From a virus (lineage: Duplodnaviria; Caudoviricetes): a stretch of DNA of 55,412 nucleotides. Below the pieces are notes generated by a model, which saw nothing but the letters and a program-made list of their open reading frames with translations, had not been told where the DNA came from and made no database searches. The stretch is from positions 1 to 55,412 of IMG/VR virus record IMGVR_UViG_3300025000_000128; one strand, given 5' to 3'. A program made the position numbers and the translations under genes. Position 1 is the first letter of the stretch, and each line of letters begins with the position of its first letter. Shown in pieces: positions 7,416 to 39,243 of this stretch.

Positions 7416-10244
7416 TTAATTATGTAATTCGTGTCCAATATCCTTGTATCTCATTAATAAATATCTTTTAATACTATCTGACAGTTCGATCATTCCAGAG
7501 CACCTAGAAATTGCCACGTAACAACAAAAAACTTCTTCTGATATATCTTTAACTAACTTCTTTTTGTCTCCATAATCCTCATCTTTTTTAAGATACTTAT
7601 TCTTATAAGTAACCTCTAAATCTAAATGATCATTACTAATATAAACAGGCATACTCAGTGTTAATCCCTTGCTTTTATGAATTGTAGAAAATATAATATC
7701 TGCTTTATCCTTATCTGTAACAGTATTATTTTTAATTCCATCTACAATATCAATAATACGTGAACCATATTTATCTACCATTCTGATTAAAGAAAGTATT
7801 TCGATATCATTTGTGTCCTCTGCATATGTTTTCATTTTATAGTAGTCTTCAAACTTAGCAAATAGTTTATTCTTTGTAGGATGTCCTTGACTGTAAAAAA
7901 GACACTCCTTAAGTGATTGAAATGAGTAAGAAGAATATCCTCCAACAAAGAAAAGCTTTTTATTCTTATCTTCACTTAATGCTTCAGCAATTTCAGCAAA
8001 TATGTAAGCATTTGTTCTACATAAACAAGCGTATGGTTTAGATTTATCTATTTTATCAACTATAGTTTGTTTGGAGTTAAATCCTTTCATTTTAATATTA
8101 TCACCAATGAAGTCAGAGATAATTAGGTTTTCTATATGAGCAATGTTATTAGATACTCTAAATGATGTTGTGAGTTTATATTCTTTTGCATCAAATAATG
8201 GCATGATATTTACAGCCTTTCTCCATGAGTACAATTGCTGATAGCAGTCACCCACAATTATTAGTTTTGGTACATTTGAATTTTTAAGTATATCAAACAT
8301 CATCATTGAAGAATCTTGACAATTATGTACTACTACTCCAGAAGCATTCTTATTAGATGTTTTCTGAGTGATAAAATTATGATTATCTGCTACTTCAATA
8401 TCATATACATTATCATTAGATACTTTATGTATTGACTTGATATAATTTCCACCATGATTTAAATATATGTTATTATACTCACAAACATTATTAGTAATAT
8501 TTATATTTGTCTTATATTGCATTGTTGGATGCATATATGGAGAAATTAATTTTAAAAATCTATTTGCCGATTCTTTATTTAATCTAAGATAATAATATTT
8601 ACCTTTTGTTTTTGATATTAGAAATTCTATATCATATTTATTAAGAATAATATCTCTTAAATATGTTGTTTGTTCTAATGTTAATTGATTTGAATTTATA
8701 GAAATACCACCACTAGTATGATAAGTACCATCATCTTGATACCATATTGCTAATCCTAATGGTTCAATATCATTTAGTAATACCATAGGATCATTCTCAA
8801 GTAAAAATACCTTCGTAGAATTAGATTGATAGACAGATAATTTTTTAGTATATCCACTCTCTATCATTTTGTATGATAAATCAAATGCTTTAATTTTAGA
8901 TTTAAAATATTCAAATTGCTTTTCTCCTTGTGTAAAACTTAATCTATAAGTGTTAAATTTACTTTGTTTAGCCAAACTTCCATCACCAAGAAATGAACCC
9001 ATTATAATTTGTATTTGATCATCATTTGGTTTGTATTTAGTTTTCTGATTAAATGTATTATCTAGAATCATAGAATCTTTTCCAACAATTAAATCCTCTG
9101 CTTTAGTCCATCCTCTTTGCGTCAATATTTTATGATTAGGAGTGCAATGTAGTTTATTTAATCCTTCTGTATGTATCTCTAATAACTCTCTATTTTCACT
9201 CTTTATTGCTGATACAATAGGTTTATATTCAAATAAATCTTTATCAATATTATAACTTAAAGCATTTGGAAGTTTTTCGCCAGATTTATACAATTCATAA
9301 AGTTTCTTAATAGATTTATTACCTTGATCTGTCTTTACATATTGAGATGCTGGCAAACATTCATCTAACATAATAATATCATATTTATTTGATAAATCTG
9401 TCTTAGATAAATGGAACATCTTCAAATAATCATCGTGACTTATTTTCACAGAATTTTTATATTTCTTTTTAAGTTCCCATAATTTTTCACTTAATGCCAG
9501 TATTTTTCCTCTCATATCATCTTCTTTAAATATTTCTAAATCACTAAAAGTTTCTGCTGACGAAAGTGAATACTGTTTCATCATCTCGTTTATTTTTACT
9601 GCAAGTTCCATATCCTTATCCCAGTTAAGATTTAAGTCTTTAATAATATCTACTACACCATAATTAAATGTTAATTTGTCTCTATAGAATTTTCCGACTG
9701 TCTCATATCCGATGGAGTGTAAAGTTCGAATATTTACGTGCTTTTGTGATTGGAAGAGATTTTGGCTCTCTAATTGCATTGATTTGTTGTAAACTACGTA
9801 GAGAATTTTGCTAAAAGGATGTTCTTTTGCAAAATAATATAGAGTGCTTGATTTCGCAGATCCTGTTAAAGCTGATACCTTAACCCTATCCTCTGTACTA
9901 AAAATAATATCCTTCTGTTCTTGAGTTAACCAATACCCTTCTTCTGACATATAATCAGACATTTTTACTTCAACATTATCAAATTGTTTATTATAAAATT
10001 CTGTAGATAAAATATCTGTATCAGATTGTTGGAATATAGATTTATCTTCTTTTATTATAAGTTTCATTTTTGCTTCGCATTGTGATACATTAGGTTCAGT
10101 ATCTTTAGCATGTGAGTAAAATTGCTTGACCGCACCAAAGTTCCTAGTTAATACTTCATGGCAAACAGGACAGGTGTAAATATTATTAGATGTTGACTCT
10201 ATGATATCTACAAGTTTGTTATTTTGGTCATACGCTTTTTTCAT
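7416..10244 (-). CDS. UvrD-like SF1 helicase with N-terminal Zn ribbon, interrupted by an intein
   Basis: ALTGSAKS (motif I variant), YVVYNK, RTLHS, MLDE|CQD, VGDCYQQLYSWR, LTTSFR, STIHKSKGL, YVAISR; N-terminal CPVC. Confidence 0.88.
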   Translation of the reverse strand: MKKAYDQNNKLVDIIESTSNNIYTCPVCHEVLTRNFGAVKQFYSHAKDTEPNVSQCEAKMKLIIKEDKSIFQQSDTDILSTEFYNKQFDNVEVKMSDYMSEEGYWLTQEQKDIIFSTEDRVKVSALTGSAKSSTLYYFAKEHPFSKILYVVYNKSMQLESQNLFQSQKHVNIRTLHSIGYETVGKFYRDKLTFNYGVVDIIKDLNLNWDKDMELAVKINEMMKQYSLSSAETFSDLEIFKEDDMRGKILALSEKLWELKKKYKNSVKISHDDYLKMFHLSKTDLSNKYDIIMLDECLPASQYVKTDQGNKSIKKLYELYKSGEKLPNALSYNIDKDLFEYKPIVSAIKSENRELLEIHTEGLNKLHCTPNHKILTQRGWTKAEDLIVGKDSMILDNTFNQKTKYKPNDDQIQIIMGSFLGDGSLAKQSKFNTYRLSFTQGEKQFEYFKSKIKAFDLSYKMIESGYTKKLSVYQSNSTKVFLLENDPMVLLNDIEPLGLAIWYQDDGTYHTSGGISINSNQLTLEQTTYLRDIILNKYDIEFLISKTKGKYYYLRLNKESANRFLKLISPYMHPTMQYKTNINITNNVCEYNNIYLNHGGNYIKSIHKVSNDNVYDIEVADNHNFITQKTSNKNASGVVVHNCQDSSMMMFDILKNSNVPKLIIVGDCYQQLYSWRKAVNIMPLFDAKEYKLTTSFRVSNNIAHIENLIISDFIGDNIKMKGFNSKQTIVDKIDKSKPYACLCRTNAYIFAEIAEALSEDKNKKLFFVGGYSSYSFQSLKECLFYSQGHPTKNKLFAKFEDYYKMKTYAEDTNDIEILSLIRMVDKYGSRIIDIVDGIKNNTVTDKDKADIIFSTIHKSKGLTLSMPVYISNDHLDLEVTYKNKYLKKDEDYGDKKKLVKDISEEVFCCYVAISRCSGMIELSDSIKRYLLMRYKDIGHELHN
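8322..9359 (-). mobile_element. intein (346 aa) with LAGLIDADG homing endonuclease
   Basis: starts CLPASQYV, block B CTPNHKIL, GSFLGDGS and IWYQDDG motifs, VYDIEVADNHNF, ends VVVHN followed by Cys+1. Confidence 0.92.
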
Positions 10245-11973: not shown

Positions 11974-12702
11974 TTAACTTATTTTATTATTTTTTAATTT
12001 TAGTGTATCAATAATTAATTGCCTTCCTTTCTCTGTTATTAAAATCACATAATTTATACTTCCATCTTTATATTTTTTCTTTCTACCATTCTCAAAGTAT
12101 CCTTGATTTATGTATTCATCTTTAACATAATATGCACAATTATTTGATTTTGTAAATATACCTTTTAGAAATAGTTCTTCATATAATTTATCTTGTGGGA
12201 ATTTCATTTTATATCCATCTAGTTTGAGTTTTGAATATGTATCTAAACAGTTTAGTATTCTATTGTTTAATTTTAATCTTAACTTTTCAGTTTTAGGATT
12301 AGGTGGATTTAAACCATTGTTTTGTACCAATCTCATCAAATATTTTGCATCAGCTATTTTACTTATGATTACTTTTTTACCACTAAGGACTTTATCTACA
12401 GTGTTTTCTATATTGTATCCATTGGTAATAGAATTATATTGATTTATGTATTTTCCTTCTACGTATATCAATTGCATAGTTGTTTTATATGGACTATCTA
12501 AACTTTGTATTTCTTCTAGTATTTCAAATCTAAAATTATCTTTTCCGTATGTATTCCATGCAGTTTGTAATTTATAGTTGCAATGAGAATTTTTGTTTAG
12601 TTCATCTATATGTTCATCCCAACGTCTTTCTATGTTATTACTTTCACCAATATAAGGTAGATTGTTTATTTTGTTTATAATTCCATATATTCCTTTTGTC
12701 AT
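11974..12702 (-). CDS. GIY-YIG endonuclease with C-terminal antirepressor (KilAC/ANT)-like domain
   Basis: GIYGIINKINNLPYIGES..RRWDEH..LQTAWNTYG..FEILE..GYN; C-terminal EYINQGYFE..ITEKGRQLI. Confidence 0.8.
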   Translation of the reverse strand: MTKGIYGIINKINNLPYIGESNNIERRWDEHIDELNKNSHCNYKLQTAWNTYGKDNFRFEILEEIQSLDSPYKTTMQLIYVEGKYINQYNSITNGYNIENTVDKVLSGKKVIISKIADAKYLMRLVQNNGLNPPNPKTEKLRLKLNNRILNCLDTYSKLKLDGYKMKFPQDKLYEELFLKGIFTKSNNCAYYVKDEYINQGYFENGRKKKYKDGSINYVILITEKGRQLIIDTLKLKNNKIS

Positions 12703-12756
12703 TTTAATCTTCTCTCCTCTATCAATCATTATTTTATTTTTATATTGTTAGTAATA

Positions 12757-13358: not shown

Positions 13359-14135
13359 TTAATCAGTAATTTCCACTTCATATCTACACATAGCATCATA
13401 TAATGTCTGAGGAATATTATTTTTATATTCATATGCTACCTGTTTTATGTATTTTTCTTTATATTCTTTATATGCATTAAAGGCTTCTTCGGGTGTATTA
13501 AAACTTCCTAAATATATACTTGAATCATTGTCGCGACAAACTGCATTATATTTTCTATGATGTGCGGATACACCTACTAGTATATTGTTATGTCTGTGTG
13601 TTTTTAACAAAGAATTAATTCTAACAGGGACGAATACACATGTCTCTGGAGAATAAATTTTATTACCTTTAATTAATATATCTTTGTCTAAATGCATTTC
13701 TTCTCCATCTATTTCATAATAGTTTTCATCATACCATTGACCAAAGTTTTGAAAGTTTAACCACTCATTACAGACAGTGCAACCTATGTATGTAGGACGT
13801 TTTTTATGTAATTTTTCATCATAGCATCTATGCAACATATTCGTCCAACAACGATATTGACTAGTTGTTTTAGAATTTCTACCACTTTTATATTTTCCTA
13901 CTCCCAAATAACCAACTCCACAAACTGTTTTATCATATAACGAATTTGCCATTCCTTTCATAAAATCTTTATATTCACGATTGTAAACTGTATAATTTGT
14001 ATCAGGAAAATATATGTCAATATCTTTTGTATTATTATATTTTATTATCATCATTTTGCTACCAAAATTATTTACTCCAATTTGTCCTACTCTATCAGCA
14101 ACTTTTACAGATTCATTTATTTTTGCATATGCCAA
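13359..14135 (-). CDS. HNH-type homing endonuclease with AP2-like C-terminus
   Basis: WTNMLHRCY..VCNEWLNFQNF..LDKDILIKGNKIYSPETCVFVP..YLGSFNTPEEAFNAY. Confidence 0.8.
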   Translation of the reverse strand: MAYAKINESVKVADRVGQIGVNNFGSKMMIIKYNNTKDIDIYFPDTNYTVYNREYKDFMKGMANSLYDKTVCGVGYLGVGKYKSGRNSKTTSQYRCWTNMLHRCYDEKLHKKRPTYIGCTVCNEWLNFQNFGQWYDENYYEIDGEEMHLDKDILIKGNKIYSPETCVFVPVRINSLLKTHRHNNILVGVSAHHRKYNAVCRDNDSSIYLGSFNTPEEAFNAYKEYKEKYIKQVAYEYKNNIPQTLYDAMCRYEVEITD

Positions 14136-14263
14136 TTATCAATCAATCCTTTCTATTTTAACTCAATATTTTTCTAACCATAAAAGATAATTTAAATTTT
14201 CCTAATCCATAATATATTTCCCCCCTTATCTATCTAGATATAATTTATTTTATATCTATACAT

Positions 14264-14292
14264 AGTATATCAAATTACAAGATATATGTCAA
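14264..14292 (-). promoter_or_regulatory. sigmaA promoter
   Basis: TTGACA-17-TATACT, extended TG. Confidence 0.7.
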
Positions 14293-14932
14293 TATATTTA
14301 TTTAAAGATTTATAAAATTTATTTTTAGTAATTTATATTGTTGTTTACTCCCAAAATTTGATTCGGTCAAGTTTGTTAAATATACGCCCCCTTATATAGA
14401 AAGGATATAGTATAATAGATATAAGTGCTGTTGTATAAGGATTTTATGGAGGTTTATGTAGATGGATATTTTGATTTTTATGGATGCATTTATTGTGATT
14501 ATTGTTTTTGTAATTTGTTCGATTGGATTGAAATAGATTTATGATTTGGAATTTAAATTAAATAGAAATTTATAGATCATAGGATAGAATTTGGTTTATG
14601 TTTGTGCTAGATAATTGTTATAATAGTAGGAATTATTGGTTGTTTTATTATATTAGATTATGTGAGAATTTTAGATGATTTTATGAGATTAATTTGTAAA
14701 ATTATTTGATATTTGAGAAGTTTTATGAATTAGTTTTTGGAATTTATGTAGGTGGAAATTGTTGTGTTGATTATGTTTTTGCGATGAATGTACGAAGGGG
14801 AATTTGAGATTATATTGGATTAAAATTTAAGAGAATAAAAATATTTTAAATAATTTTTATATTTACTATTGACAAATTTGTTAAAGTGTGATCGGGTTCG
14901 ATAGTAAAATTGGTCTAGAACTCCATGTACTC

Positions 14933-14949
14933 TGTCGAATCCTGTCGAA
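14933..14949 (+). promoter_or_regulatory. tandem Spo0A-box-like sites
   Basis: TGTCGAA at 14933 and 14943; further copies at 15280 and 46278. Confidence 0.45.
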
Positions 14950-15713
14950 ATAAAAAGTTGTTAATTTGTAAAGATACGCCCCATGTTGGCATGGTTTTTG
15001 AAAGTGAATACTAGCACAGGTTTTTGCTATAGTCTATGCTTATGACAAACTGAAAATATTACAACCGGAATACCTGCTGAACGCTACAACCCGCATGAAT
15101 AAAGGGTTTTTACAATTATCTGAATGTGACACAATGGGAATGTGTAACATTGGATGAGAAATGGGCCTTATATTATGTATCGGAATGATTTTGGATAGCT
15201 TAGAAGGGCAAATATGAGGCAGAAATGATAAGAGGAATAATGTCCTGGTTTTGCTCCGGCTGTACTCGGTTAATGATAATGTCGAATTGATTTTAGTCGG
15301 GAAAATGGAATGAATAATGATAATGAGTAGAATGTTGGGCCTTGATGCTATTTGCTCAGGTGCATAAATTTTTTGCACCTCGATTTATATAACATACGAT
15401 TTTTGAGTGAACACTTATAATAAATGAGTAATCACTCATATGTCTATTCATTCATATATAAATTGTAATTACATTGTATACACATAAAGTTACAATCATA
15501 ATACCATACAATACAGTCAGTTGACCACATTACACGTTCATTATAATCATAATCACATAATCCAATCACTCTAACAACATCACATGATCAAAATGATCAC
15601 ATAGCATAAACCTATACTATAATAATCTATACTAATACAGATTATTATAGACAAATCATTATACTACTATCAGTATAAACAATAATAAAATATTCATAAA
15701 TCTAAAATAAAAT

Positions 15714-21381: not shown

Positions 21382-21620
21382 TAATTCGTCATGAATAACT
21401 ATATATATTAATATAGATATTGGTGACGAATTACGAATCCTTAATATAGTATAATTGCCTAATTAAAATCCTAAAAACATTAGCTGACAGCGTCTTTTCA
21501 ATTTTGAGACAAGCTCAAAATAGGACTTGCAAACTCTGATTAAATTTAATCTAATAATAATCCTCTAAATACAGCAAAGGGGAACGCAAGCATAATTTCC
21601 GGCAAGTGTGCGGAAATTCT
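21382..21620. other. inverted-repeat cluster downstream of helicase-like gene
   Basis: AATTCGTCA..TGACGAATT around an AT core; TTTTGAG..CTCAAAA; AATTTCCG..CGGAAATT. Confidence 0.5.
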
Positions 21621-21751: not shown

Positions 21752-22078
21752 ATGAAAAAATTAATTCCAATCCTCTCAGTCCTTACCCTTTCCCTCACTC
21801 TCCTTACATCCTCTATCCTAACAACTTCCGCTTCTCCTTCAATCATCCCTGGCTCAGATACCTCATACACAATGATAGCACTCGCCACCCACAGCACCTA
21901 CAATCCATCAGAATCCTGTTACCACACAACTCTAACAAATGAAAATGGCGATGCCTTTATAGTTCTTACAATCGACAATGTTATAAACAAATGGTTTGAA
22001 TGCTCAGTCGATTCAAATAATACACCGGAAATTATTACAGATGATAAAATAATTGATTTAGGATTGCTAGAGGACTGA
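21752..22078 (+). CDS. putative secreted protein
   Basis: signal peptide MKKLIPILSVLTLSLTLLTSSILTTSA; promoter TTGACA at 21678. Confidence 0.7.
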   Translation: MKKLIPILSVLTLSLTLLTSSILTTSASPSIIPGSDTSYTMIALATHSTYNPSESCYHTTLTNENGDAFIVLTIDNVINKWFECSVDSNNTPEIITDDKIIDLGLLED

Positions 22079-23725: not shown

Positions 23726-24634
23726 TTGGCATCGGTAAAACAATTAGAAGTAATAGAAAGAAAACGACAGGAAAAACTTAATAAAGAACATAAATTAATA
23801 GATGGCATAGATCATAAATTTTGTAATAAACATAATATATTCTTTCCAGAAGAATCTCCTTGGATAATAGCTACTGAGGAATATTTTTATCGTAATGATA
23901 AAAATAAAACAGATTATTTGCATCCAGAATGTAAAAGATGTGGAAGTAAAAAATCATATATAAATATAGTAGAAAATTATGATAGGTTTAAAGAAGGATT
24001 AAAAACATACAGACAAAGCGAAAAAGGCAGAAAGCAAGAAAAGGAGAAAAATATTAGACTTAAGGAGAAGGGATCACGAAAAACATGGTGGCAAGCTAAT
24101 CCTGATAAATTAAGAGGTTATAATGAAAAACATCGAAACCATGATATTCTTGAAAGTGAATGGAAAGCTAATCAGAAATATTTTAACTTTGAATGCGCTT
24201 ATTGTGGTCTTCCCATTGAAAAACATATAGTTTATAGAAATGGAAATGAAATACTTATGAGTTTCCACAAAGAACATGTGGATGATGAAGGTTATAATGA
24301 TGTTAGAAATTGTGTACCATCTTGTGGAAGCTGTAATAGTGGTAAAAGAGCAAAGACATTAGATGAATTTTTAGAAAGAGGATTTATAGATGGATTTACT
24401 GAAGAAAGATATAATAAAATAATTAAATGGATCACAGAAGATTATAAAAAATATATAATTGAGAAGCCACCATATCGAATTATTAAAAAGAAAAATGAAC
24501 ATGATAATAAATTTCATTGGAATCTATGGAGTGTGGACGAAATGAGAAATACTATTGAAGTCCTTGCTACCAGTGTTAAGAAGAAAGATTTAGATATACA
24601 TATTGAAAGATTATTTCCTGTACATAAATCATAA
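23726..24634 (+). CDS. HNH endonuclease
   Basis: CAYCG..HKEHV..NCVPSCGSCNSGK; N-terminal CNKH..ECKRC; own promoter 23597-23626. Confidence 0.85.
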   Translation: MASVKQLEVIERKRQEKLNKEHKLIDGIDHKFCNKHNIFFPEESPWIIATEEYFYRNDKNKTDYLHPECKRCGSKKSYINIVENYDRFKEGLKTYRQSEKGRKQEKEKNIRLKEKGSRKTWWQANPDKLRGYNEKHRNHDILESEWKANQKYFNFECAYCGLPIEKHIVYRNGNEILMSFHKEHVDDEGYNDVRNCVPSCGSCNSGKRAKTLDEFLERGFIDGFTEERYNKIIKWITEDYKKYIIEKPPYRIIKKKNEHDNKFHWNLWSVDEMRNTIEVLATSVKKKDLDIHIERLFPVHKS

Positions 24635-24881: not shown

Positions 24882-26114
24882 ATGTCTGAATTTAAAATCT
24901 ACGATGTAAACATTGAAGCACTGGAGGCCAAACTTGCTAAACTCAATAAAAAGGCTGTAAAGCTGAATTGTGAACCCTTTGTGCTAAACATTCTTAGCAC
25001 TGAGACCATTCGTAACGAAGAACTTAAAACAGAAAACAAAGTCTATACCTTAGAGCTTTCTGGCACTCCTCCGCAAATCGCAAACTGGCAATTCATAGGA
25101 TCAATTGAACCACACGATAGCGCGAACTTAATTAAAACGATTGCAGGAGAAACTTATCCAGAAAACTACAGAACACACAGTAATTATTGCGAACACTGTC
25201 ATTCTACTAGAAAAAGAAAAATGCTATATCTAGTTAAAAACACTGAATCTGGTGAATACAAAGCAGTAGGCAAAACTTGCTTAAAGGATTTTACCGGACA
25301 TACAAATCCTGAAGCATACGCCAGTTTGTTGGAATTATATTTAGATTCTTCGTGGTTGGAAGAATTTGAAGGTGTTCCTGATGGATCAGGATTGCAAAGA
25401 AAATATAACCTAGAAGAATATTTATCTTATGTATCGGCATGTATCCGAGATAATGGATGGACTAGCAGAAGTAAAGCTCAAGAAGAATACAAACAAGCTA
25501 CAGCGGATTATGCAGTCGATGTTTTGACAGCATCAGAAAGCAGAAGAAAAAGATATGGATATCCTGAAACGAATGACCAGGACAGAGAATTAGCTCAAAA
25601 ATCTATAATCTGGGCTAAAGAACTTGAAGCAGAAAACGACTATCTAAACAACATTAAAATTATTGCACTGGATGAAGTTACAACTTATAAAAATATGGGA
25701 TTTGCAGCAAGTATCGTTTCAAGTTTTACCAGGCATATCGAGCGCGAAATCGAAAAAGAAATGAAAGCAACATCATCAAAACAAGAATTAATATCTGGCT
25801 ATGTCGGCAACATAGGCGAAAAGATTCAAACCGAATTAACCTATATAAATACATTCAGTTTTGAAACACAATGGGGAGATTCACACATTTATAAATTTTT
25901 GGATTCCGAAGGAAATATTTTTATCTGGAAATCATCAAAATATCTAGAAAAAGTTGTATCTGTTTATATTGAAGAAGATGAAAACAAAACAGAATACAAA
26001 CATTTTGAACCTATTCGCCAAGGTGAAAAAGTTAAAATCAAAGGAACAATAAAAGACCATAGTGAATATGCAGGAGCGAAGCAAACAATATTAACAAGGT
26101 GCAAAATAGCTTGA
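24882..26114 (+). CDS. phage protein with Zn site and C-terminal OB-fold-like domain
   Basis: CEHCHSTRKRK..VGKTCLKDF; YVGNIGEK..FIWKSS..IKGTIKDHSEYAGAKQTILTRCK. Confidence 0.7.
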   Translation: MSEFKIYDVNIEALEAKLAKLNKKAVKLNCEPFVLNILSTETIRNEELKTENKVYTLELSGTPPQIANWQFIGSIEPHDSANLIKTIAGETYPENYRTHSNYCEHCHSTRKRKMLYLVKNTESGEYKAVGKTCLKDFTGHTNPEAYASLLELYLDSSWLEEFEGVPDGSGLQRKYNLEEYLSYVSACIRDNGWTSRSKAQEEYKQATADYAVDVLTASESRRKRYGYPETNDQDRELAQKSIIWAKELEAENDYLNNIKIIALDEVTTYKNMGFAASIVSSFTRHIEREIEKEMKATSSKQELISGYVGNIGEKIQTELTYINTFSFETQWGDSHIYKFLDSEGNIFIWKSSKYLEKVVSVYIEEDENKTEYKHFEPIRQGEKVKIKGTIKDHSEYAGAKQTILTRCKIA

Positions 26115-26121
26115 AAGGATA

Positions 26122-26162
26122 AAATAGACTAGAGACCAAAAATCTATAGTCTATTTTTTTTT
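26122..26162 (+). terminator. intrinsic terminator
   Basis: AAATAGACTA..TAGTCTATTT then T run. Confidence 0.75.
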
Positions 26163-26350
26163 ATTACGCACAGAAAGCACTCTCTAAGCGTTTAGAATCT
26201 GTTACCCTATATAATTGCACTCTAACACGTTTTAAACCTGTTAAAATAAAAATATAGGCATGATGCCCATAAATGTTAAAATAATTATTGACATTATGCC
26301 ACAAATCTATATAATAATAAGTAATTACATATTAAAAAGGAGTTGGAGCA

Positions 26351-26941
26351 ATGAAGGAATTAAAGCTTGAACAATTGCAATCCAAATTCGTCGGATCAAT
26401 TGTAAAAAAGTCCAGTAAATATTATGTTACCTACCCAAATTCTACACGCGAATATGGCTATAAATGCAATTTGAAGCAATTAGCCGAAAAACTTAATATC
26501 GAAGTCGAAGAGTTTTTAGGGGATGATACAGTCTATCAGACTAAAAATAAATCTAGTTTTAACCGATATATCACAACTTTAAACAATGCCGAAAAGGAAC
26601 GCGATATACTTAGTCAAGAAAGCTTTCTTTCATTGTTACCAGAAAACATTAAAAAGGTTTATGAGTTATCACAAGAGGGGGAAAGATCAAATAGTTTTAA
26701 CAAAGTTGAAAGAAAAGTATTTGTCCTCTTTGCTAAAGTTAACCGCAGAAAAGAAACTATAGAATTGATCATAGATATAAATGAACAACTAAAAATACCA
26801 TCGACAAGTTATATCAGTTATTACAGAATTTGTACTTTCTCAAATCAATATATTAATACTGAAATGGTAAAATTCGATATAGACCAATTTATTAAAAACA
26901 AAGTCAATGAGTTTAAAAATTCCAAAATGTTTTATGAGTAA
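26351..26941 (+). CDS. hypothetical protein
   Basis: 196 aa; promoter 26288-26315; terminator AGAGCTA..TAGCTCT. Confidence 0.8.
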   Translation: MKELKLEQLQSKFVGSIVKKSSKYYVTYPNSTREYGYKCNLKQLAEKLNIEVEEFLGDDTVYQTKNKSSFNRYITTLNNAEKERDILSQESFLSLLPENIKKVYELSQEGERSNSFNKVERKVFVLFAKVNRRKETIELIIDINEQLKIPSTSYISYYRICTFSNQYINTEMVKFDIDQFIKNKVNEFKNSKMFYE

Positions 26942-27090
26942 GAGCTAACAAATAGCTCTTTTTCTTTTCCCTCATACCCATTAAAAATCCATTTTTATAG
27001 GTTAAAATAGTAAAATAATATATTGACATATTAAAAAATAAGCGTATAATTATAGATAGTTACACAACTTAATAAAGGAGTTGACCGCAA

Positions 27091-27312
27091 ATGACATACA
27101 CTGAAAAGTCTGAAAAATGGGCTAAAAAATTGGGTTATGAATCCTTTAATGCTTTATGGATGGCCTCGGAAGAGACTAGGGATTCAGATCACAATCTCTC
27201 TTATATTACTCCATATAATGGTAAATTTGTTACATATGACTATAACCTCAGAAAAAAGGATATTAAAACCTTCGATACACTAAAAGAAGCCTACCAAAGT
27301 TTATTTAACTAG
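27091..27312 (+). CDS. hypothetical protein
   Basis: own promoter 27023-27050, RBS, terminator. Confidence 0.75.
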   Translation: MTYTEKSEKWAKKLGYESFNALWMASEETRDSDHNLSYITPYNGKFVTYDYNLRKKDIKTFDTLKEAYQSLFN

Positions 27313-27360
27313 AGCAAAAACTCTAGTTTTTCTTTTAAATAAAAAGGAGTGGTATATTTT

Positions 27361-27537
27361 ATGGATAAATTGACAAACGAAGAATATGCAGTAAACAACT
27401 TTAAACAAAATTTATGGCACGAACTGGAGCCAAACTTTTTAGAATTTATACATGGGACTGTAAAAGAAGAGGATATGAAAACGGACAACGAGAAAATTAT
27501 GTTTTATAGATTGCAACAGATTTTCGAGACATTGTAG
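27361..27537 (+). CDS. hypothetical protein
   Basis: AAGGAG RBS; terminator AGAGCG-GAAA-CGCTCT at 27560. Confidence 0.65.
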   Translation: MDKLTNEEYAVNNFKQNLWHELEPNFLEFIHGTVKEEDMKTDNEKIMFYRLQQIFETL

Positions 27538-27731
27538 GAAAATGGAATAGACAAATTTTAGAGCGGAAACGCTCTTTTTTCTTTGTCCTGCTTAAGTTTT
27601 ACATTCATTACATCCAACGCCTTAAAAGTGCCTTTCTACTCCTTAAAACATAATATAATTACTATTTGACGTTTGTATATTTACTATGATATTATGTATC
27701 TATAAATAAATTTATAAGGAGTGTTTAATTA

Positions 27732-28037
27732 ATGAGAAAATTACTCAATACATTTTCAGAACTAAAGCCAAATATCTTTCAACTCATTGCACTAAATCAA
27801 AAGGGAGATTACGCCAATATAAATTTAAATACCGGAATGATTCTTTATTCTAAACGTCAAGATAACTGGCTTCCCGCCCAAAACAAAATCAGTATTCCAG
27901 AATTTGAAGAATGTATGGCTAATAATCCAAAACTATGGTTGTGTAAAGAATTTATTGTATTTAGAAATACTCATGTTGAGGTGTATAATGATTATGTTGA
28001 TAGAGTAAATAAAATGGAAATAATCTTTAAAGACTAG
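27732..28037 (+). CDS. hypothetical protein
   Basis: 101 aa, RBS, terminator AGACTAGT..ACTAGTCT. Confidence 0.75.
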   Translation: MRKLLNTFSELKPNIFQLIALNQKGDYANINLNTGMILYSKRQDNWLPAQNKISIPEFEECMANNPKLWLCKEFIVFRNTHVEVYNDYVDRVNKMEIIFKD

Positions 28038-28328
28038 TATTAACTAGTCTTTTTCTTTGTTTAAAAATAAAATTATGCCAATCATTCAACCCGATCAACT
28101 AATTTTCCCTTTTCAATCCTTCACAAACCAAAAACACTGGCACATAAACAGCCCTTCTTGCCATTAGATTGCATTACCCTTTATATTCTTACCTTAACAC
28201 GTTTTTAACGTCTCAGAATCAAAATAGGGTTAATTGTGGGCCAAAGATCCAATTATAACCTTGAATTGTTTGTAAAATCACTAAAATAAAATAGGACTTA
28301 ATAAACGCAAAAATAATTGTTTTGCCTA

Positions 28329-28357
28329 TTTACAAGTGATTCAATATCATATATACT
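28329..28357 (+). promoter_or_regulatory. sigmaA promoter in front of non-coding block
   Basis: TTTACA-17-TATACT. Confidence 0.6.
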
Positions 28358-28362
28358 AAGTG

Positions 28363-28790
28363 ACATAGAGAAGCACACGCAAACATTCTACTAAAGCTTT
28401 TCTACAGTATCAAATCGTTAAATAAAGTTCGATTAAAATTGACCTACGGTAAAAAGGAGGTTCGCCAATCACAGACATTTAACCCTCAGTCCTACATACA
28501 CCTAAAAACATTCTCTTAGGAGCATCCCTTATGTGCCACCATAATAAACCATGTAAGATTTAGCCGAAAACATCCTATTTTGACTTTGCCTCTAATAAAG
28601 GCCAGCTATACGATGTGATTAGACGAAAATCCTCTTCATTCAGTTTTATGGGTTAGGCAGGTGGATAGTGGGTTCCAATAATAGAGAAGATCATAAGCCT
28701 AGCAACAGGCGAATTCTAAAGTATAGAAATATACTTTACCCTGATAGGGTTAAAAATCTGAATTGTAGTTTATTTATAGCAAAAAGCTTG
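28363..28790 (+). ncRNA. large multi-stem ncRNA candidate, class not recognised
   Basis: long-range stems 28394-401/28782-89, 28402-07/28763-68, 28457-73/28614-34; hairpins AAAGTATA-GAAA-TATACTTT, GCCT..AGGC x2, ACCCT..AGGGT. Confidence 0.6.
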
Positions 28791-28818
28791 TATCAAATAA
28801 AATCTCTCTTTTATCTAA

Positions 28819-28978
28819 TCCTTATCCTTTCCTTAAAATATTTCGAACGTGGAGAAGTCCTCTGTGCTAGTATATTCTCTTCAAAAGCTTAATTTTGCGA
28901 ATGATGCAATTGGCAGCCAAGAAGAAATGAAAGTACAAGATAACGAAACTAATAGGAATATTTTAGAAGGGATAAGGA
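28819..28978 (+). ncRNA. rod-like structured RNA candidate
   Basis: closing stem 28819-42/28957-78 with nested internal stems. Confidence 0.5.
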
Positions 28979-28998
28979 GTAAGATAAAAACATTCTAT

Positions 28999-29123
28999 AA
29001 TCCCTTCAGTTTATTCATTATTACAATTTAATCATAACAATTGCTTTAAACTTGCATAACAAAATTAAAATGCAGGTAGTTGTAATTTAATGTTAAATTG
29101 TATAAACTTAGATTGAAGGGATT
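28999..29123 (+). other. long nested hairpin with ATAACA at the apical loop
   Basis: AATCCCTTCAGT/ATTGAAGGGATT, TACAATTTAA/TTAAATTGTA, ACTTGCAT/ATGCAGGT. Confidence 0.6.
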
Positions 29124-29204
29124 AATTTTCCGCAAAGTGTGAACTTTTATAACAATTTAAGTTTAGACCTTGGGTAAAATTTAAGAATGAAAGAGGTTAT
29201 AATT

Positions 29205-29459
29205 ATGAACATGTATGCAATTGTCAAGGTTTTTAACACTGGTAAAATGGAGATTCAACAAACCACAATTGGTACTAAGGAATTTGCAGAATCTCAAATG
29301 GAAACATGTTTGATTGCCGATGAATCTAACCTATGGAAAAAGTATATTGAAGAATCTATACATCGAAACACTAACCCCAGTGTATGGATTGAGGCTTTAG
29401 AAAAATATGAAAAACTATGTGTCGAGTACAAAATTTGTCAAATTGGAGTTATTCTCTAA
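29205..29459 (+). CDS. hypothetical protein
   Basis: AGAGG RBS before 29205. Confidence 0.7.
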   Translation: MNMYAIVKVFNTGKMEIQQTTIGTKEFAESQMETCLIADESNLWKKYIEESIHRNTNPSVWIEALEKYEKLCVEYKICQIGVIL

Positions 29460-29604
29460 CCCAATCAAAAAGACATTTTATCGTATTTTAAGACTGTATA
29501 AACATTTGATTATGCAGTCTTTCAGACTTCGAAGTTTTACTAAACTATGTACTAAATCAAAAATAATTAGTATATAGTTTAGTAAAATAAAAGGAGTGGT
29601 TATT

Positions 29605-29976
29605 ATGTTAAGCAAAAAGGAATTCGATGCATTCAGAAAAGAAGCTGAACTAGCTCTAGTGGAATTATCCAAAAAGTACAATGTCAATGTTGAGGCTGGA
29701 AAGATCAAGTATACATCAGATAGCTTTAACCTTGATTTAAAAGTCACTAAAAAGGAAGTCAATGGGAAGTCTTTTGAACAGTCTGAATTCGAGAAGTATT
29801 GTATCTTGTATGGTTTTCAGCCGGAAGATTATAACAAAACGTTTACCACTAGCGGAAGAAAGTTTAAGTTAATTGGATTTAAAACAAGTGCTAGAACAAT
29901 GCCTGTATTGGCTCAAAGTGAAGACGGTAAAAATTACAAGTTTGGCACTGATGTAAAAAGGTTATTAAGTGCTTAA
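29605..29976 (+). CDS. hypothetical protein
   Basis: AAGGAG RBS; 123 aa. Confidence 0.8.
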   Translation: MLSKKEFDAFRKEAELALVELSKKYNVNVEAGKIKYTSDSFNLDLKVTKKEVNGKSFEQSEFEKYCILYGFQPEDYNKTFTTSGRKFKLIGFKTSARTMPVLAQSEDGKNYKFGTDVKRLLSA

Positions 29977-30071
29977 CCCTTAAAGTTTTTTCGTTATTAG
30001 CAACAAAAACAAAATAACAGACATAAAAATTTGTTGCTAGTGTCGAGTAAATTAGAAGGAGTGAAGTTAAA

Positions 30072-31274
30072 ATGGCAAGAAGAAAACCAACCACAATGTC
30101 ATGGAACATCAAGCAAATTAACACCATGATCAATAAGGGAACAATCCTCTTTACTCATCCCCTTCAACGTCCTACGGGCCAATGGGAGCAAGCAGACAAA
30201 TCCTTATTAGTGGATTCTCTTTTAACCCTCTATTGTCCAGATTGTTTCGCCATCAAAGAAAAGACAGAGAATGGTAATACATACAGCATCATTGATGGCC
30301 TTCAAAGGTTGTCTACTATTCATGAACTTCTAGCAGACAAATTGACTATGACAGAATTAGAAGACTTTTGCCTAGATGCTACCGGAAATGAAGTCTATAA
30401 CATTTCAGGTAAAACATGGTCACAATTTCCCGAAGAAGTTCAAAACGAAATAATGGGTTATACTTTAGGTCTTAAAGTCTTCGAAATCGAAGAGGGAGAC
30501 GATGAAGAGTCAATCATTGAAGAAATCTTTTACCGCCTTAATAACGGTAAAGGAATGTCACTAGAGCATAAAGCACTAGTAAAAGCTAGTCATAAGGTGC
30601 AAAAATTTGTTCACAGAATCGCAACAGAACACAAACTATTTACTAACATTGCAAAGTATTCTGAAAAAGCGGTAAAGAAATCTGATATTCCAATGACCAT
30701 TATGCAAGCTATTCTCCTTATCTCAAGACTAGATTATCCTAGCCTAGCAGCAAAGGACATTGAACTGGTATTCTCGAAAAACGAAATAACAGATCAAGTC
30801 CTAACACTTGTGGAAAATTCCTTTGATCTTATTGCAAAAGCATTTCCAGAACAGCACAAATTCGTTACAAAAATAAATATTGTGTCAATGGCATATCTTT
30901 TCGCGAATAGTTTAAACCATGACCAAACGATTGTTAATCTTTTGAGATATGTTAATCAAGAGGTTAAACCAGGAGACTCCTACAAAGGATATACAGGCTC
31001 CGGTAATGTCAAGAAGGAAAAGACTATTAACAGACTTAAAGGAATTCTCAAATTGTGTAAAGTTGATGATATTGGATTACCAGTGATGGAAGAAGCTCAA
31101 GAGGTTGAAGAAGTAATTGATCAAGAGGAAATCATTGAAGAACAATGGGAACAGCCTCTACAAGCTGAAAACCTTGAATCTTCTATAACAGATGATCTTG
31201 TAGAGTTCAGCGATGAGGCAGGAAATCTAGAAGACGCTAAAGCAATTTTGAGTATTGTAAACAATGTTGCTTGA
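30072..31274 (+). CDS. DUF262 (ParB/GmrS-like) domain protein with acidic tail
   Basis: LQRPTGQW..LVDSLL..IIDGLQRLSTI..EIFYRLNNG. Confidence 0.85.
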   Translation: MARRKPTTMSWNIKQINTMINKGTILFTHPLQRPTGQWEQADKSLLVDSLLTLYCPDCFAIKEKTENGNTYSIIDGLQRLSTIHELLADKLTMTELEDFCLDATGNEVYNISGKTWSQFPEEVQNEIMGYTLGLKVFEIEEGDDEESIIEEIFYRLNNGKGMSLEHKALVKASHKVQKFVHRIATEHKLFTNIAKYSEKAVKKSDIPMTIMQAILLISRLDYPSLAAKDIELVFSKNEITDQVLTLVENSFDLIAKAFPEQHKFVTKINIVSMAYLFANSLNHDQTIVNLLRYVNQEVKPGDSYKGYTGSGNVKKEKTINRLKGILKLCKVDDIGLPVMEEAQEVEEVIDQEEIIEEQWEQPLQAENLESSITDDLVEFSDEAGNLEDAKAILSIVNNVA

Positions 31275-31631: not shown

Positions 31632-31695
31632 TGCAGAGTGACTAGGGACTATAACGGTCTCTAGGTAATGCACAAGGAAGGTCACAAGTCCTTCC
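31632..31695 (+). ncRNA. twister ribozyme, P5-type circular permutation
   Basis: UGCA-GAGUG, P1 CUAGGGAC/GUCUCUAG, UAA-UGCA, P4 GGAAG/CUUCC with loop GUCACAAGUC (CAC pairs GUG); predicted cut U31666/A31667. Confidence 0.82.
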
Positions 31696-31725: not shown

Positions 31726-34173
31726 ATGTCTAAATCTCTTCAAACTTTAAAAACCAATATTACTAAAGGTTCGCAAAGACTTTCCAAAGCTACTATTAAA
31801 AACATTGTCAACGCAGGAGAATTTGAAAAGATTGAACTTGCTTATTCTTACGATGGAAGAGAAGTCCACAAAGGAACTTTGATCGAAAATCCTGTTGAAT
31901 GGTTCAATAAGGAATATGACTCTATTGATGTTCGACTCTACAAAGTAGAAAAAGGTTTAGTTTTAATCCATTTACATTTTCATTCTAATTTATGGTATGG
32001 TCTACATATTGATCTAAACAAAAACTATGAAACAACCAATGCACCAGCAGGAACAAAGGAGGAAAATAAAATTCAAGATGTTCAAGTAACGGAAGCCAAA
32101 AACTATCTTGATACCATGCAAGCAAAATTCAAAACTGGCGAAGGAACAGCAGAAGAACTAAGAGCTTATTATACATACCTAATTGAAAATGTTGATTCTG
32201 TAAAGGCTGTAATTCTTGACATGCTGAACAATTCTGAAAAGCACAAAAGGAAACGTGTAAATACTAAAGCTGAATTAACTCAAGATTACTATAACAACAT
32301 GGTCGAAGCTCTTGTATATCATGTTCAAGATGCGTTATCATATGAAATTGACTTTACTGACATTAAAGGAGCAAGACAAAGAGCAATTAAGGCAATTCTT
32401 GATAATACCACTGATGAAATGATACAAGAACATTATATGAAGACTAAAGCAACGGACGAAAAATATGCAGAACAGCGAAAAGAATTAATCGAAGCAATCA
32501 AAAACCCTCAAACCTTAAAAGACTTCGAAAATGTTAGGTATTACCGCAAAGACAAAACCTTAACACTAGAAGAACAAGAACGCTATGACAGAGTATATTC
32601 TCTTGCTCAAATTGAAAAGAAAGTAAATCAAGAGCAAGAAAAAGCAGAAAAGGCATTATCTGTTGTCACTACTTCCGATCAATATACCATTATTGAAGAT
32701 ATTGACACAAGAGACAATTCTCAAATTTGGGTTGTAAAACTCAATAACAGAGTTGGCAAGGATGATTTTAATTATATCAGATCCCAAATTATGAAACCTA
32801 TTGACGGTTATTATTCACGGTTTAAAGGTGGCTTCTTGTTCAAGTATGATCCTAGTGCTAAACTTTTAGGAGAACAGGTAGAGCAACAGGAAGAACAAGT
32901 AAAAGAAGAAATAAAACATTCCGATAAACTCCGTAAGGTTGCCGATAATATGCAAAGCACAATTGACAGTAAAAGAGCAGACAGATTGACCAACACGGCA
33001 AGACGTGCAAGGATGGCAGCAGGGCAAGAAGAACAAGCAGAAAGCATGGAATTTATACAGGGAATTCTTCGCAATGTTGCAAATGCTATTGATAATCAAG
33101 AACTGACTTTCATTGATAAAATTGATTCTAGAGCACAAATTGACACATTAGAAAACATTTTAGTTCGTGCCAACTGGGAAAAGAAATCTGTTGAAAAGAT
33201 TGATTATAAAATTTGGCATGAATCCCCAATAACGGCAGACTATATCAAATACGCAGAAATCCCCTCTAGCAAAATTTCTTTATATCGTTTACAATCTATT
33301 ATTAATGAAATCAAAAATACTGATGGATTTAAACTCATTGCAAACAGATTGCAAAAACTTATTGACAGTGCAAAGCTGAAGCAAAAAGATATTCACCATG
33401 ACCCCTTGATTGACATTTCAGATTATGACTCTGAACTTGACAAAATCTATAAAAATACTGATGTTTTGAAGAATCAATACTTTGAAACAGCCATCGAAGA
33501 ACGCAGAAGATTGTCAAGAATGGGCATAGAATCAGTTGAAGAACTAAGAACATATCTAAGAGAATACTTCAATTATCGGACTGTAAAAAGCTCAATTGAT
33601 CCCACCGAACAGAAGATTAAAGAGTTGGAAAGAAAATTCAAGTTCGATCAAAAAGGCGATATTAATTTTACTCCTTCAAACATTGCCCTCCAAATGATTG
33701 AATTGGCTGACATATCCAATAACAGCAGAGTCCTTGAACCTTCAGCCGGAATCGGGAACATTGCAGACCAAATCAAAAAATTTACTCCTAATGTTGATGT
33801 TTGTGAACAAATGTATTCTTATTCTGAGTTATTGACTCTCAAGGGGTTTAATGTTGTTAGTTCTGATTTCTTGCAGTATGAAAATAACAATTATTATGAT
33901 TGTATTATTATGAATCCCCCATTTAGCCAAGAGCAGGAACACATTAAACATGCTTATAATTTGTTAAAAGTAGGTGGTAAACTCATTGCTATTACTTCAC
34001 CACACTGGACGTTTGCCAATGACAAATCATCAAAAGAATTCCGGCAATGGTTCGAGAATTTAAATGGTGAAATTGTGGAAGAATTAGAATCAGGAACTTT
34101 TGAGATGACGCAAGTTAGATCAAATATAATTATCATCAACAAAGACACTGAGACCATGCAAAAGGCTGTATAA
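31726..34173 (+). CDS. large polyvalent protein with C-terminal N6-adenine DNA methyltransferase
   Basis: VLEPSAGIGNI (motif I), IIMNPPF (motif IV); central DTRDNSQIWVVKL..GYYSRFKGGFLF region. Confidence 0.85.
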   Translation: MSKSLQTLKTNITKGSQRLSKATIKNIVNAGEFEKIELAYSYDGREVHKGTLIENPVEWFNKEYDSIDVRLYKVEKGLVLIHLHFHSNLWYGLHIDLNKNYETTNAPAGTKEENKIQDVQVTEAKNYLDTMQAKFKTGEGTAEELRAYYTYLIENVDSVKAVILDMLNNSEKHKRKRVNTKAELTQDYYNNMVEALVYHVQDALSYEIDFTDIKGARQRAIKAILDNTTDEMIQEHYMKTKATDEKYAEQRKELIEAIKNPQTLKDFENVRYYRKDKTLTLEEQERYDRVYSLAQIEKKVNQEQEKAEKALSVVTTSDQYTIIEDIDTRDNSQIWVVKLNNRVGKDDFNYIRSQIMKPIDGYYSRFKGGFLFKYDPSAKLLGEQVEQQEEQVKEEIKHSDKLRKVADNMQSTIDSKRADRLTNTARRARMAAGQEEQAESMEFIQGILRNVANAIDNQELTFIDKIDSRAQIDTLENILVRANWEKKSVEKIDYKIWHESPITADYIKYAEIPSSKISLYRLQSIINEIKNTDGFKLIANRLQKLIDSAKLKQKDIHHDPLIDISDYDSELDKIYKNTDVLKNQYFETAIEERRRLSRMGIESVEELRTYLREYFNYRTVKSSIDPTEQKIKELERKFKFDQKGDINFTPSNIALQMIELADISNNSRVLEPSAGIGNIADQIKKFTPNVDVCEQMYSYSELLTLKGFNVVSSDFLQYENNNYYDCIIMNPPFSQEQEHIKHAYNLLKVGGKLIAITSPHWTFANDKSSKEFRQWFENLNGEIVEELESGTFEMTQVRSNIIIINKDTETMQKAV

Positions 34174-35127: not shown

Positions 35128-35194
35128 TGCAGAGTGGTAGAGCGTTATAACAATCACGCTCTATTAATGCACAAAGCAGGTCACAAGTCCTGCT
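35128..35194 (+). ncRNA. twister ribozyme, P5-type circular permutation (second copy)
   Basis: same core as 31632 with different stems: P1 UAGAGCGU/ACGCUCUA, P4 AGCAG/CUGCU; predicted cut U35165/A35166. Confidence 0.82.
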
Positions 35195-39143: not shown

Positions 39144-39216
39144 ATTGGTCTGAGCCAGTATAAAACACCTTAAGCTCAGAGCGTTAGTAGGGTTTATAAC
39201 AATCCTGCTAGGTGGT
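39144..39216 (+). ncRNA. pistol ribozyme
   Basis: P1 AUUGG/CCAGU with loop UCUGAG pairing CUCAGA, AUAAAA linker, ACC-UUAAG, GCGU, P3 UAGUAGGG/UCCUGCUA, GGU-GGU; predicted cut G39212/U39213. Confidence 0.9.
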
Positions 39217-39243
39217 ATAACAATAACAGGGAGGATGATTTTA

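Follow-up and report, generated by a model that had tools for sequence, protein, structure and literature searches.

What does a long gap in the gene map of an uncultivated phage hold? The window analysed here (the whole stretch of 55,412 bases, positions 1 to 55,412 of the IMG/VR virus record IMGVR_UViG_3300025000_000128, Caudoviricetes; GC ~30%, record completeness rated at 37%) has genes that run almost all rightward from 15782 to 54125 in its open reading frame (ORF) map, and leaves a gap of 1,130 nt between a 101-aa gene and a 90-aa gene. A sequence-only reading of this DNA had placed in the gap, at 28363-28790, one candidate non-coding RNA of ~430 nt with its own promoter, closed by pairing of its ends, built of several domains with a possible pseudoknot, and likened to the ROOL and GOLLD RNAs. 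Here, we found that the conserved structure of this interval is one hairpin rod of 178 nt (28511-28688) within a 245-nt cassette, which we call module B. Comparison of its natural copies indicates that the rod is a real structured RNA motif whose pairing has been kept by evolution on the + strand. We tentatively favour a role for module B in cis, in the leader of a long transcript, and weigh this below against the other readings.

A covarying rod in a portable cassette

Module B and its parts are laid out as follows.

28451-28694, + strand: module B, a portable non-coding cassette, 87-88% identical in the relatives' loci L143 (= L145), L137 and L139
28454-28461, + strand: orphan Shine-Dalgarno-like (SD) sequence AAGGAGGU, its GGAGGT invariant in 4/4 sequences, no usable start codon behind
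28462-28510, + strand: C/A-rich stretch, predicted to be mostly unpaired, nearly invariant, with CCCUC and UCCU tracts
28511-28688, + strand: rod hairpin from RNAalifold and pair counts, 54-56 pairs in 7-8 helices, apical loop 28592-28598

Besides the window copy, module B was found as three distinct sequences on four metagenome contigs, with unrelated flanks on one or both sides. The alignment of the four distinct sequences (91-93% identical) gave an unbranched consensus rod in RNAalifold, in which compensatory changes are seen at 10 of the 59 consensus pairs and pairing holds in 99.6% of the 236 cells. None of 500 column shuffles reached the covariation score of the rod, and sliding the partners by 1-3 columns left 0-1 compensated pairs and 39-49% pairing. 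The minimum free energy (MFE) fold of the window sequence alone has the same helices (10/56 pairs compensated and 99.1% paired on the alignment), so the fold was not tuned to the alignment. Variation occurs in 38 of the 190 columns, 22 of which are paired, and no change breaks a pair of a consensus helix; from the pair types, a minimum of 11 independent compensatory events was counted. The four-sequence comparison is tempered by several changes being common to L137 and L139. The covarying parts are the closing helices (28511-28537/28656-28688) and the terminal helices (28570-28591/28599-28616). The centre of the rod (28539-28564/28622-28651, helices 5-7) and the internal loops never vary, so the central helices are predicted ones that lie outside the covariation. 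Moreover, 17 of the 236 cells are G-U pairs on the sense strand, which would be A-C on the other strand, and this favours the + strand for the rod.

In front of the rod, only a weak 5-pair helix (helix 1, GAGGU/ACCCUC) is predicted to involve the C/A-rich stretch, without compensatory change, and no ATG, GTG or TTG lies 3-13 nt downstream of AAGGAGGU. The covariance model R1 recognised only the known module B copies in 339 kb of fetched loci, found no copy in the whole records of five relatives (one of them rated 100% complete), and the window holds no second copy. Two exact-pattern scans of the viral collection gave 0 and 0 matches. In the genome collection they gave 0 and 2, and these two were discarded as chance matches because R1 recognises neither. 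By these searches, module B is narrowly distributed and apparently a new structured RNA motif.

Known families did not account for the interval. With Rfam cmscan at gathering thresholds, only two twister-P5 ribozymes and one pistol ribozyme were returned from the whole window, all outside the interval; from 27900 to 29300 at E <= 10 there were six Rfam matches, all with E >= 4.3, from eukaryotic or viral families and far below thresholds. Neither search (window at gathering thresholds; 27900-29300 at E <= 10) gave a covariance-model match to ROOL, GOLLD, tmRNA, RNase P, group I/II introns, HEARO or OLE, and ARAGORN found no tRNA or tmRNA in the region. The earlier failure to match tmRNA, RNase P or introns was thus confirmed, and nothing ties the interval to ROOL or GOLLD. 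No self-cleaving ribozyme (twister, pistol, hammerhead, hatchet or twister-sister) was found in 27900-29300, no ribozyme-family match at E <= 1 in the relatives' loci L016-L018, and no blastn match of 28040-29190 to annotated phage records. The attribution to a Firmicute phage has no basis that we could verify, the sole habitat label being groundwater metagenome. What survives of the proposed new or diverged class is a conserved RNA structure of no known class inside the interval, not a multi-domain RNA of 430 nt.

The interval is indeed gene-free and relatively GC-rich, as had been described. No ORF of at least 30 aa lies in 28168-28667 on either strand, and GC is 0.355-0.385 in 28400-28700 against ~0.25-0.33 in most 200-nt windows of 26000-29999. 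Alternative genetic codes (TGA or TAG as sense) do not open the interval selectively in comparison with the genome as a whole. A protein-coding gene or pseudogene was rejected on the lack of such ORFs and of selective opening, together with a blank tblastx search for the 3' third of the interval against relatives.

The end-closed, multi-domain 430-nt model fared differently. All the complementarities on which it was built are present in the sequence, and so is its GAAA-capped 8-bp hairpin at 28718-28737. The closing duplex 28394-407/28763-89 reaches -9.1 kcal/mol, which 2.45% of random same-region segment pairs equal; for the two nested helices, 28439-46/28650-57 (-6.9 kcal/mol) and 28457-73/28614-34 (-14.4 kcal/mol), the shares are 0.35% and 0.05%, both rarer than 0.5%, and the pseudoknot CCACC/GGUGG reaches -6.8 kcal/mol. 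Also in favour of the model, the outer part of 28457-73/28614-34 (GAGGU../..AUCCUC) is invariant in 4/4 sequences. However, the whole interval folds at -83.8 kcal/mol against -78.8 +/- 5.4 in shuffles (z = -0.93; 14/100 shuffles fold as well), and its minus strand gives z = -1.81. The 27 pairs of the two nested helices and the pseudoknot show no compensatory change on the four-sequence alignment, and 81.5% of their cells pair against 81.2% in shuffles. Four of the seven inner pairs of 28457-73/28614-34 are broken in L137 and L139, the two sequences in which helix 8 of the rod covaries. In the pseudoknot, the second G of GGUGG (column 227) pairs as proposed in just two of the four sequences; it covaries with column 94, which is its partner in the rod and not part of CCACC. 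The 3' side of the closing duplex sits in a segment without a homolog in any fetched locus, which rules out a conserved closing helix formed by the ends. Three segments of differing distribution make up the interval, a mosaic in which module B is flanked by a 5' segment common to some relatives only and a 3' segment unique to the window, and a discrete 430-nt transcript is not indicated because no terminator-like site follows it. Taken together, these results leave the 430-nt model very improbable: compensatory changes support the rod and not the helices drawn earlier. For an AT-rich stretch of 430 nt, a fold drawn by hand can look plausible and be wrong for the most part, though real structure lies inside the stretch. 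One lead from the earlier fold survives: GAGGU (28457-61) and AUCCUC (28629-34) are invariant and complementary, and they could form an alternative pairing with the AAUCC bulge of the rod.

A putative modular leader behind a promoter-like site

Relatives of the region were gathered through the downstream protein, through exact patterns from the conserved flanks and by scanning metagenomes once for a pattern taken from the conserved hairpin H2. This gave 33 loci, 24 of them distinct, plus L058; an unspecific 16-mer probe, TTGTAATTTAATGTTA, added L058 and L076 among the matches listed. The elements of the region around module B are given below.

28044-28253, + strand: left block, non-coding, after a terminator-like hairpin, 80-88% identical in relatives, C-rich on this strand
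28329-28357, + strand: promoter-like site P1, TTTACA-17-TATACT, 10/12 consensus positions, start predicted near 28363-28365
28363-28450, + strand: segment A, 5' leader described from MFE folds, 83-88% homologous in L143/L145 and L153 only
28695-28796, + strand: segment C, filler unique to the window, with small hairpins including the GAAA-capped one
28809-28989, + strand: H1, a long hairpin with the invariant apical loop CGAAUGAUG (28898-28906)
28998-29124, + strand: H2, a nested hairpin almost invariant in sequence
29125-29180, + strand: H3, a hairpin directly before the ribosome-binding site of gene 29187-29459
29187-29459, + strand: downstream gene, 90 aa, without family match

The left block and a right block (~28797-29190) are common to all relatives' loci, and the content of the hotspot between them differs from phage to phage, in ORFs (various, 44-120 aa) and in non-coding modules. 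Three different small ORFs (97, 63 and 86 aa) stand behind module B in relatives and none in the window. Of segment C, blastn-short and tblastx found no homolog in 36 fetched loci. Segment A is predicted to form a 5'-terminal hairpin (28366-28374/28396-28404) and a small one around 28413-28433. Other loci show, by eye, a different hairpin in the same place, UAGAGG/CCUCUA in L137 and AAGAGG/CCUCUU in L157/L159.

The promoter sequence that had been proposed for the interval is present as the promoter-like site P1, and such a site is conserved in the relatives. The scan as a whole gave 14 sites against 9.7 +/- 3.6 in shuffles. In 11 of the 25 distinct loci, the P1 layout recurs with the -10 hexamer 4-5 nt before (A/C)CAT(A/G)..GA, and transcripts from the same 11 would open with a conserved 16-base start, ACATAGAGAAGCACAC or a near match; with respect to the loci that lack it, five have less than 900 nt of upstream sequence. 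The start motif ACATAGAGAAGCACAC occurs nowhere else in the window. By eye, the first bases of the transcript form a 5'-terminal hairpin, the sequence of which differs between module types. Moreover, 9 of the 11 P1-bearing loci carry an orphan SD 80-168 nt after the P1 start; it reads AAGGAGG(U/G) and has no start codon at a distance of 3-13 nt downstream, and these loci span at least three unrelated module types. Genuine genes at the locus are preceded by AAGGAG or GAGGAGG, spaced 7-11 nt from their ATG or GTG. The orphan SD of the G002-type module is paired with ACCUCU around hairpins, one of which covaries by eye. For module B itself, a promoter-like site lies 25-100 nt upstream in 4/4 contexts. 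No terminator-like site was found on the + strand from 28053 to 29500, nor after module B in L137 or L139; of the promoter and terminator that mark a discrete small RNA gene, a promoter-like site is present and a terminator-like site was not found.

The right block holds the hairpins H1-H3. Comparative support is strong for H1 in the aligned sequences: its loop CGAAUGAUG is identical in 12/12 of them above a strongly covarying stem, and the loop motif occurs in 16 of the 24 distinct loci. The G003 subtype (7 sequences, 59 pairs) has 409/413 cells paired and 5 pairs with double changes, the window subtype (5 sequences, 62 pairs) has 283/310 and 7, and across both subtypes 11 of 100 pairs are compensated. 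The complement of the loop occurs nowhere else in the window, as a search for a kissing partner found. A small ORF in H1, MKVQDNETNRNILEGIRSKIK..., was rejected as a gene, as its frame is not kept across the H1 subtypes; small ORFs overlapping H1 vary in frame, start and length among 16 loci. Just downstream of H1, the loci L143, L153, L137 and L160 encode a short hydrophobic segment, ..SLLLILVLLF(A/T)LLIKRR.., which is reminiscent of small membrane toxins with heavily folded messages; the window, in which H1 directly adjoins H2, lacks it. Folded jointly, H1 and H2 are much more stable than shuffles (z = -7.8).

Support for H2 from the aligned sequences is mixed. Pairing holds in 532 of 546 cells of its 14 intact distinct sequences, which show two double changes, and 6 of 20 distinct sequences keep the 5' arm with the 3' arm replaced, so part of the conservation of H2 is not about the hairpin. 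A second promoter-like site, TTGTAA-17-TAAACT, was seen by eye in the 3' arm of H2 (29080-29108); it is below the scan threshold and a lead only.

The replaced arm of H2 bears on a further reading, which gives the pairing no role as RNA. The rod would instead be conserved as DNA, an imperfect palindrome that serves in single-stranded form for replication, recombination or recognition by an endonuclease, or it would be left over from a palindromic mobile element. The recombination hotspot, the mobile endonuclease genes nearby and the symmetry of many internal loops of the rod are further points for it. Against these stand the single copy of module B, with no second one in the window and none in the five whole records, the G-U cells tolerated on the sense strand only, and compensatory changes without a broken pair, which speak of selection on pairing and not of decay. 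We consider the DNA-level reading improbable, and its MITE-like form, with many copies per genome, was rejected on the copy counts.

Several observations concern the setting of the leader. The 101-aa upstream gene ends at 28037, followed by a terminator-like hairpin (28029-28052), and family searches matched neither it nor the 90-aa downstream gene. The left block has a GC skew down to -0.46; its motif (TC)AAAATAGG(A/G)(C/T)T is also found at the intergenic positions 26202-26254 and 21517-21527, with three window matches against 0.56 expected (0/100 shuffles reach three), and may be a regulatory site. In one relative (G001, L016 1223-1999), a 258-aa ORF in the hotspot, upstream of the P1 of that phage, looks by eye like a free-standing homing endonuclease. 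Elsewhere in the window, a 942-aa ORF (7416-10244, - strand) has an intein splicing domain with a LAGLIDADG endonuclease inserted in a UvrD-like helicase, a GIY-YIG/KilAC protein lies at 11974-12729, an AP2-domain protein at 13359-14135 is a weak match (E 8e-4, below the Pfam cut-off), and an HNH endonuclease lies at 23726-24634. The largest gap of the window without a stop-to-stop frame of at least 60 codons is at 14188-15042 (~855 nt). At 0.9-2.5 kb downstream of the leader, a GmrSD-N-domain protein (30072-31274, + strand) and an 815-aa methyltransferase-domain protein (31726-34173, + strand) are encoded. The ribozymes lie in the same direction.

31632-31693, 35128-35192 and 39144-39217, + strand: two twister-P5 ribozymes and one pistol ribozyme, each between rightward ORFs

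The two type-P5 twisters score 51.7 and 57.7 bits and the pistol 53.8 bits, above the Rfam gathering scores, and a twister stands directly ahead of the 815-aa methyltransferase-domain gene.

Possible roles of module B

The reading that we favour, at somewhat less than even chances, is that module B acts in cis, as a leader cassette that serves the stability or the processing of its own transcript. The interval would then be the promoter-proximal part of an untranslated leader of ~820 nt, which would run from P1 rightward to the gene at 29187 and would be assembled from exchangeable modules in a recombination hotspot for accessory genes; P1 would fire, and transcription would read through into the downstream genes. 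The 5'-terminal hairpin and the orphan SD may hinder decay from the 5' end, the latter through retention of a 30S subunit or through base pairs with the CCUC tracts. Barriers or double-strand-specific cleavage sites may be supplied by the rod and H1-H3, and these would set stable ends for the accessory cistrons behind. We favour this cis-acting reading because of the sense orientation, the promoter proximity and the lack of terminators found, because a 5' hairpin and an orphan SD recur across unrelated modules, and because of precedents. Two twister-P5 ribozymes and a pistol between cistrons of the same phage make RNA-level processing of its transcripts plausible, and RNase III targets in phage SP82 and 5' stabilizers are known examples of such logic.

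Several points weigh against a cis-acting leader cassette. P1 is defined solely by its match to the consensus. The MFE of the rod, -35.2 kcal/mol, is no lower than that of shuffles (-37.7 +/- 3.6; z = +0.71; 162/200 shuffles as good), and its minus strand reaches a lower energy (-43.5 kcal/mol; z = -0.94). The longest uninterrupted helices of the rod have 6-7 pairs, short for a classical RNase III site, and the orphan SD is able to pair with CCUC tracts inside the RNA, so that it may simply be a helix strand. The comparison covers only four distinct sequences, all from metagenome and virus collections. For 28040-29460, a search for sequencing runs listed four rows, all of them DNA runs of one study, and no RNA data set. 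Moreover, a plain stabiliser would not need 245 nt at ~90% identity with invariant internal loops, and the way module B stays intact while its flanks change is at least as well explained by a self-contained functional RNA.

Such a self-contained RNA, a trans-acting phage non-coding RNA processed from the leader, is a serious alternative that we nonetheless hold to be somewhat unlikely. Base pairing of its C-rich stretch (CCCUC, UCCU) would target purine-rich ribosome-binding sites in messages of the host or the phage, with the rod as a stabilising or protein-binding body; alternatively, the RNA would be a decoy for a host factor or for defence. The borders of module B (28451-28694) are exact in four contexts with differing flanks and downstream genes, and ~50 nt predicted to be unpaired are nearly invariant, as are the internal loops of the rod. 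The hotspot holds varied small accessory ORFs, with a homing-endonuclease-like gene in relatives, and a GmrSD-like nuclease and a large DNA methyltransferase are among the neighbours. However, no terminator-like or known processing site bounds the cassette, and a scan for pairing between 28462-28510 and the start regions of 112 ORFs in the window yielded no convincing target. A single duplex was strong (-38.2 kcal/mol, with the antisense of 21753-22078), and it was rejected as C-rich and driven by composition; the next best reached -19.2 kcal/mol, short of the -27.1 averaged by shuffled seeds. The ORF 21753-22078 (+ strand) has a C-rich coding strand, by eye a signal-peptide-like N-terminus, and a strong promoter-like site in front.

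A wider form of the trans-acting reading, which we consider unlikely, is that module B and the unrelated modules in the same slot are interchangeable, promoter-proximal accessory RNA genes. If this were true, each cassette would combine a structured body with a single-stranded C-rich seed and an orphan SD, and would act in trans on targets of the host or of rival phages, for instance by masking ribosome-binding sites or as a decoy for a defence factor. The cassettes would be traded by recombination like the small anti-defence proteins of the same hotspot.

The invariant centre of the rod between covarying closing and terminal stems, and its promoter-proximal place in 4/4 contexts, would also suit a rod that binds RNA polymerase or another protein and alters transcription of the operon, by antitermination of the put type or as a 6S-like decoy. 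The put RNA is known as such an antiterminator. For 6S RNA we took as marks a rod of ~180-200 nt, a large central open bubble and a model match. The length and the rod shape fit. However, the 6S models and the other Rfam models gave no match at E <= 10 on 27900-29300, and the invariant centre is largely complementary (helices of 6 and 7 pairs; largest internal loops 6x6 and 5x5), so there is no large open bubble. Nor were downstream terminator-like sites found that would need to be overridden. Polymerase or protein binding of this kind therefore receives little credence from us.

Returning to the cis-acting reading and its trans-acting rivals, provided that the rod and the hairpins related to it have a function, a large uncultivated phage would build long leaders from swappable structured-RNA cassettes, with self-cleaving ribozymes in other parts of its genome, which would offer a natural system for the stability and processing of accessory transcripts, or for accessory RNA 'genes'. 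The motif is open to testing, given the covariance model R1, defined borders and natural variants that carry compensatory changes.

Comparison with known systems

The early region of phage T7 carries RNase III hairpins. Targets of Bacillus subtilis RNase III are also contained in early mRNA of phage SP82 (PMC4838370). Module B shares with these systems sense hairpins in untranslated stretches of phage transcripts behind strong promoters (here a promoter-like site), and with SP82 a purine-rich SD-like element without a gene and a logic of processing and stability, proposed here. It differs in that the rod, at 178 nt, exceeds classical sites by far in length, is interrupted more often, and has no sequence relation to them. 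A classical RNase III site has about two turns of near-continuous double helix and is cleaved by the enzyme; the helices of the rod have at most 7 pairs between loops, whereas H1 and H2 have longer runs.

The STAB-SD in the cry3A leader of Bacillus thuringiensis binds a 30S subunit and lengthens the half-life of downstream RNA, and the polypurine 5' stabilizer reportedly originates from SP82 RNA. Both appear in titles cited within PMC3997798. As in the cry3A leader, module B has a strong SD-like sequence, AAGGAGGU, in a 5' untranslated region without a start codon at initiation distance; its invariant GGAGGT and the similar sites in 9/11 P1-bearing loci agree with a STAB-SD-type sequence. In contrast, the SD of module B is ~90 nt from the predicted 5' end and may pair with CCUC tracts. 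ROOL and GOLLD are likewise non-coding and phage-borne, but have a multi-domain fold of 500-800 nt, whereas module B has a single unbranched hairpin of 178 nt.

Motifs of this sort have been collected from IMG/VR in a catalogue with over 10,000 candidate structured RNAs (PMC10690425), which covers lengths of 29-151 nt and requires at least three unique regions. Like many of its entries upstream of genes, module B is a covariation-supported intergenic motif of uncultivated phages. It differs in having 190-245 nt and no other copy found in the viral-collection scans, and under the limits given there (29-151 nt, at least three regions) it would not qualify; H1 or H2 might be present in that catalogue. 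Taken together, these comparisons place module B among the structured non-coding motifs of phage leaders, as one of narrow distribution.

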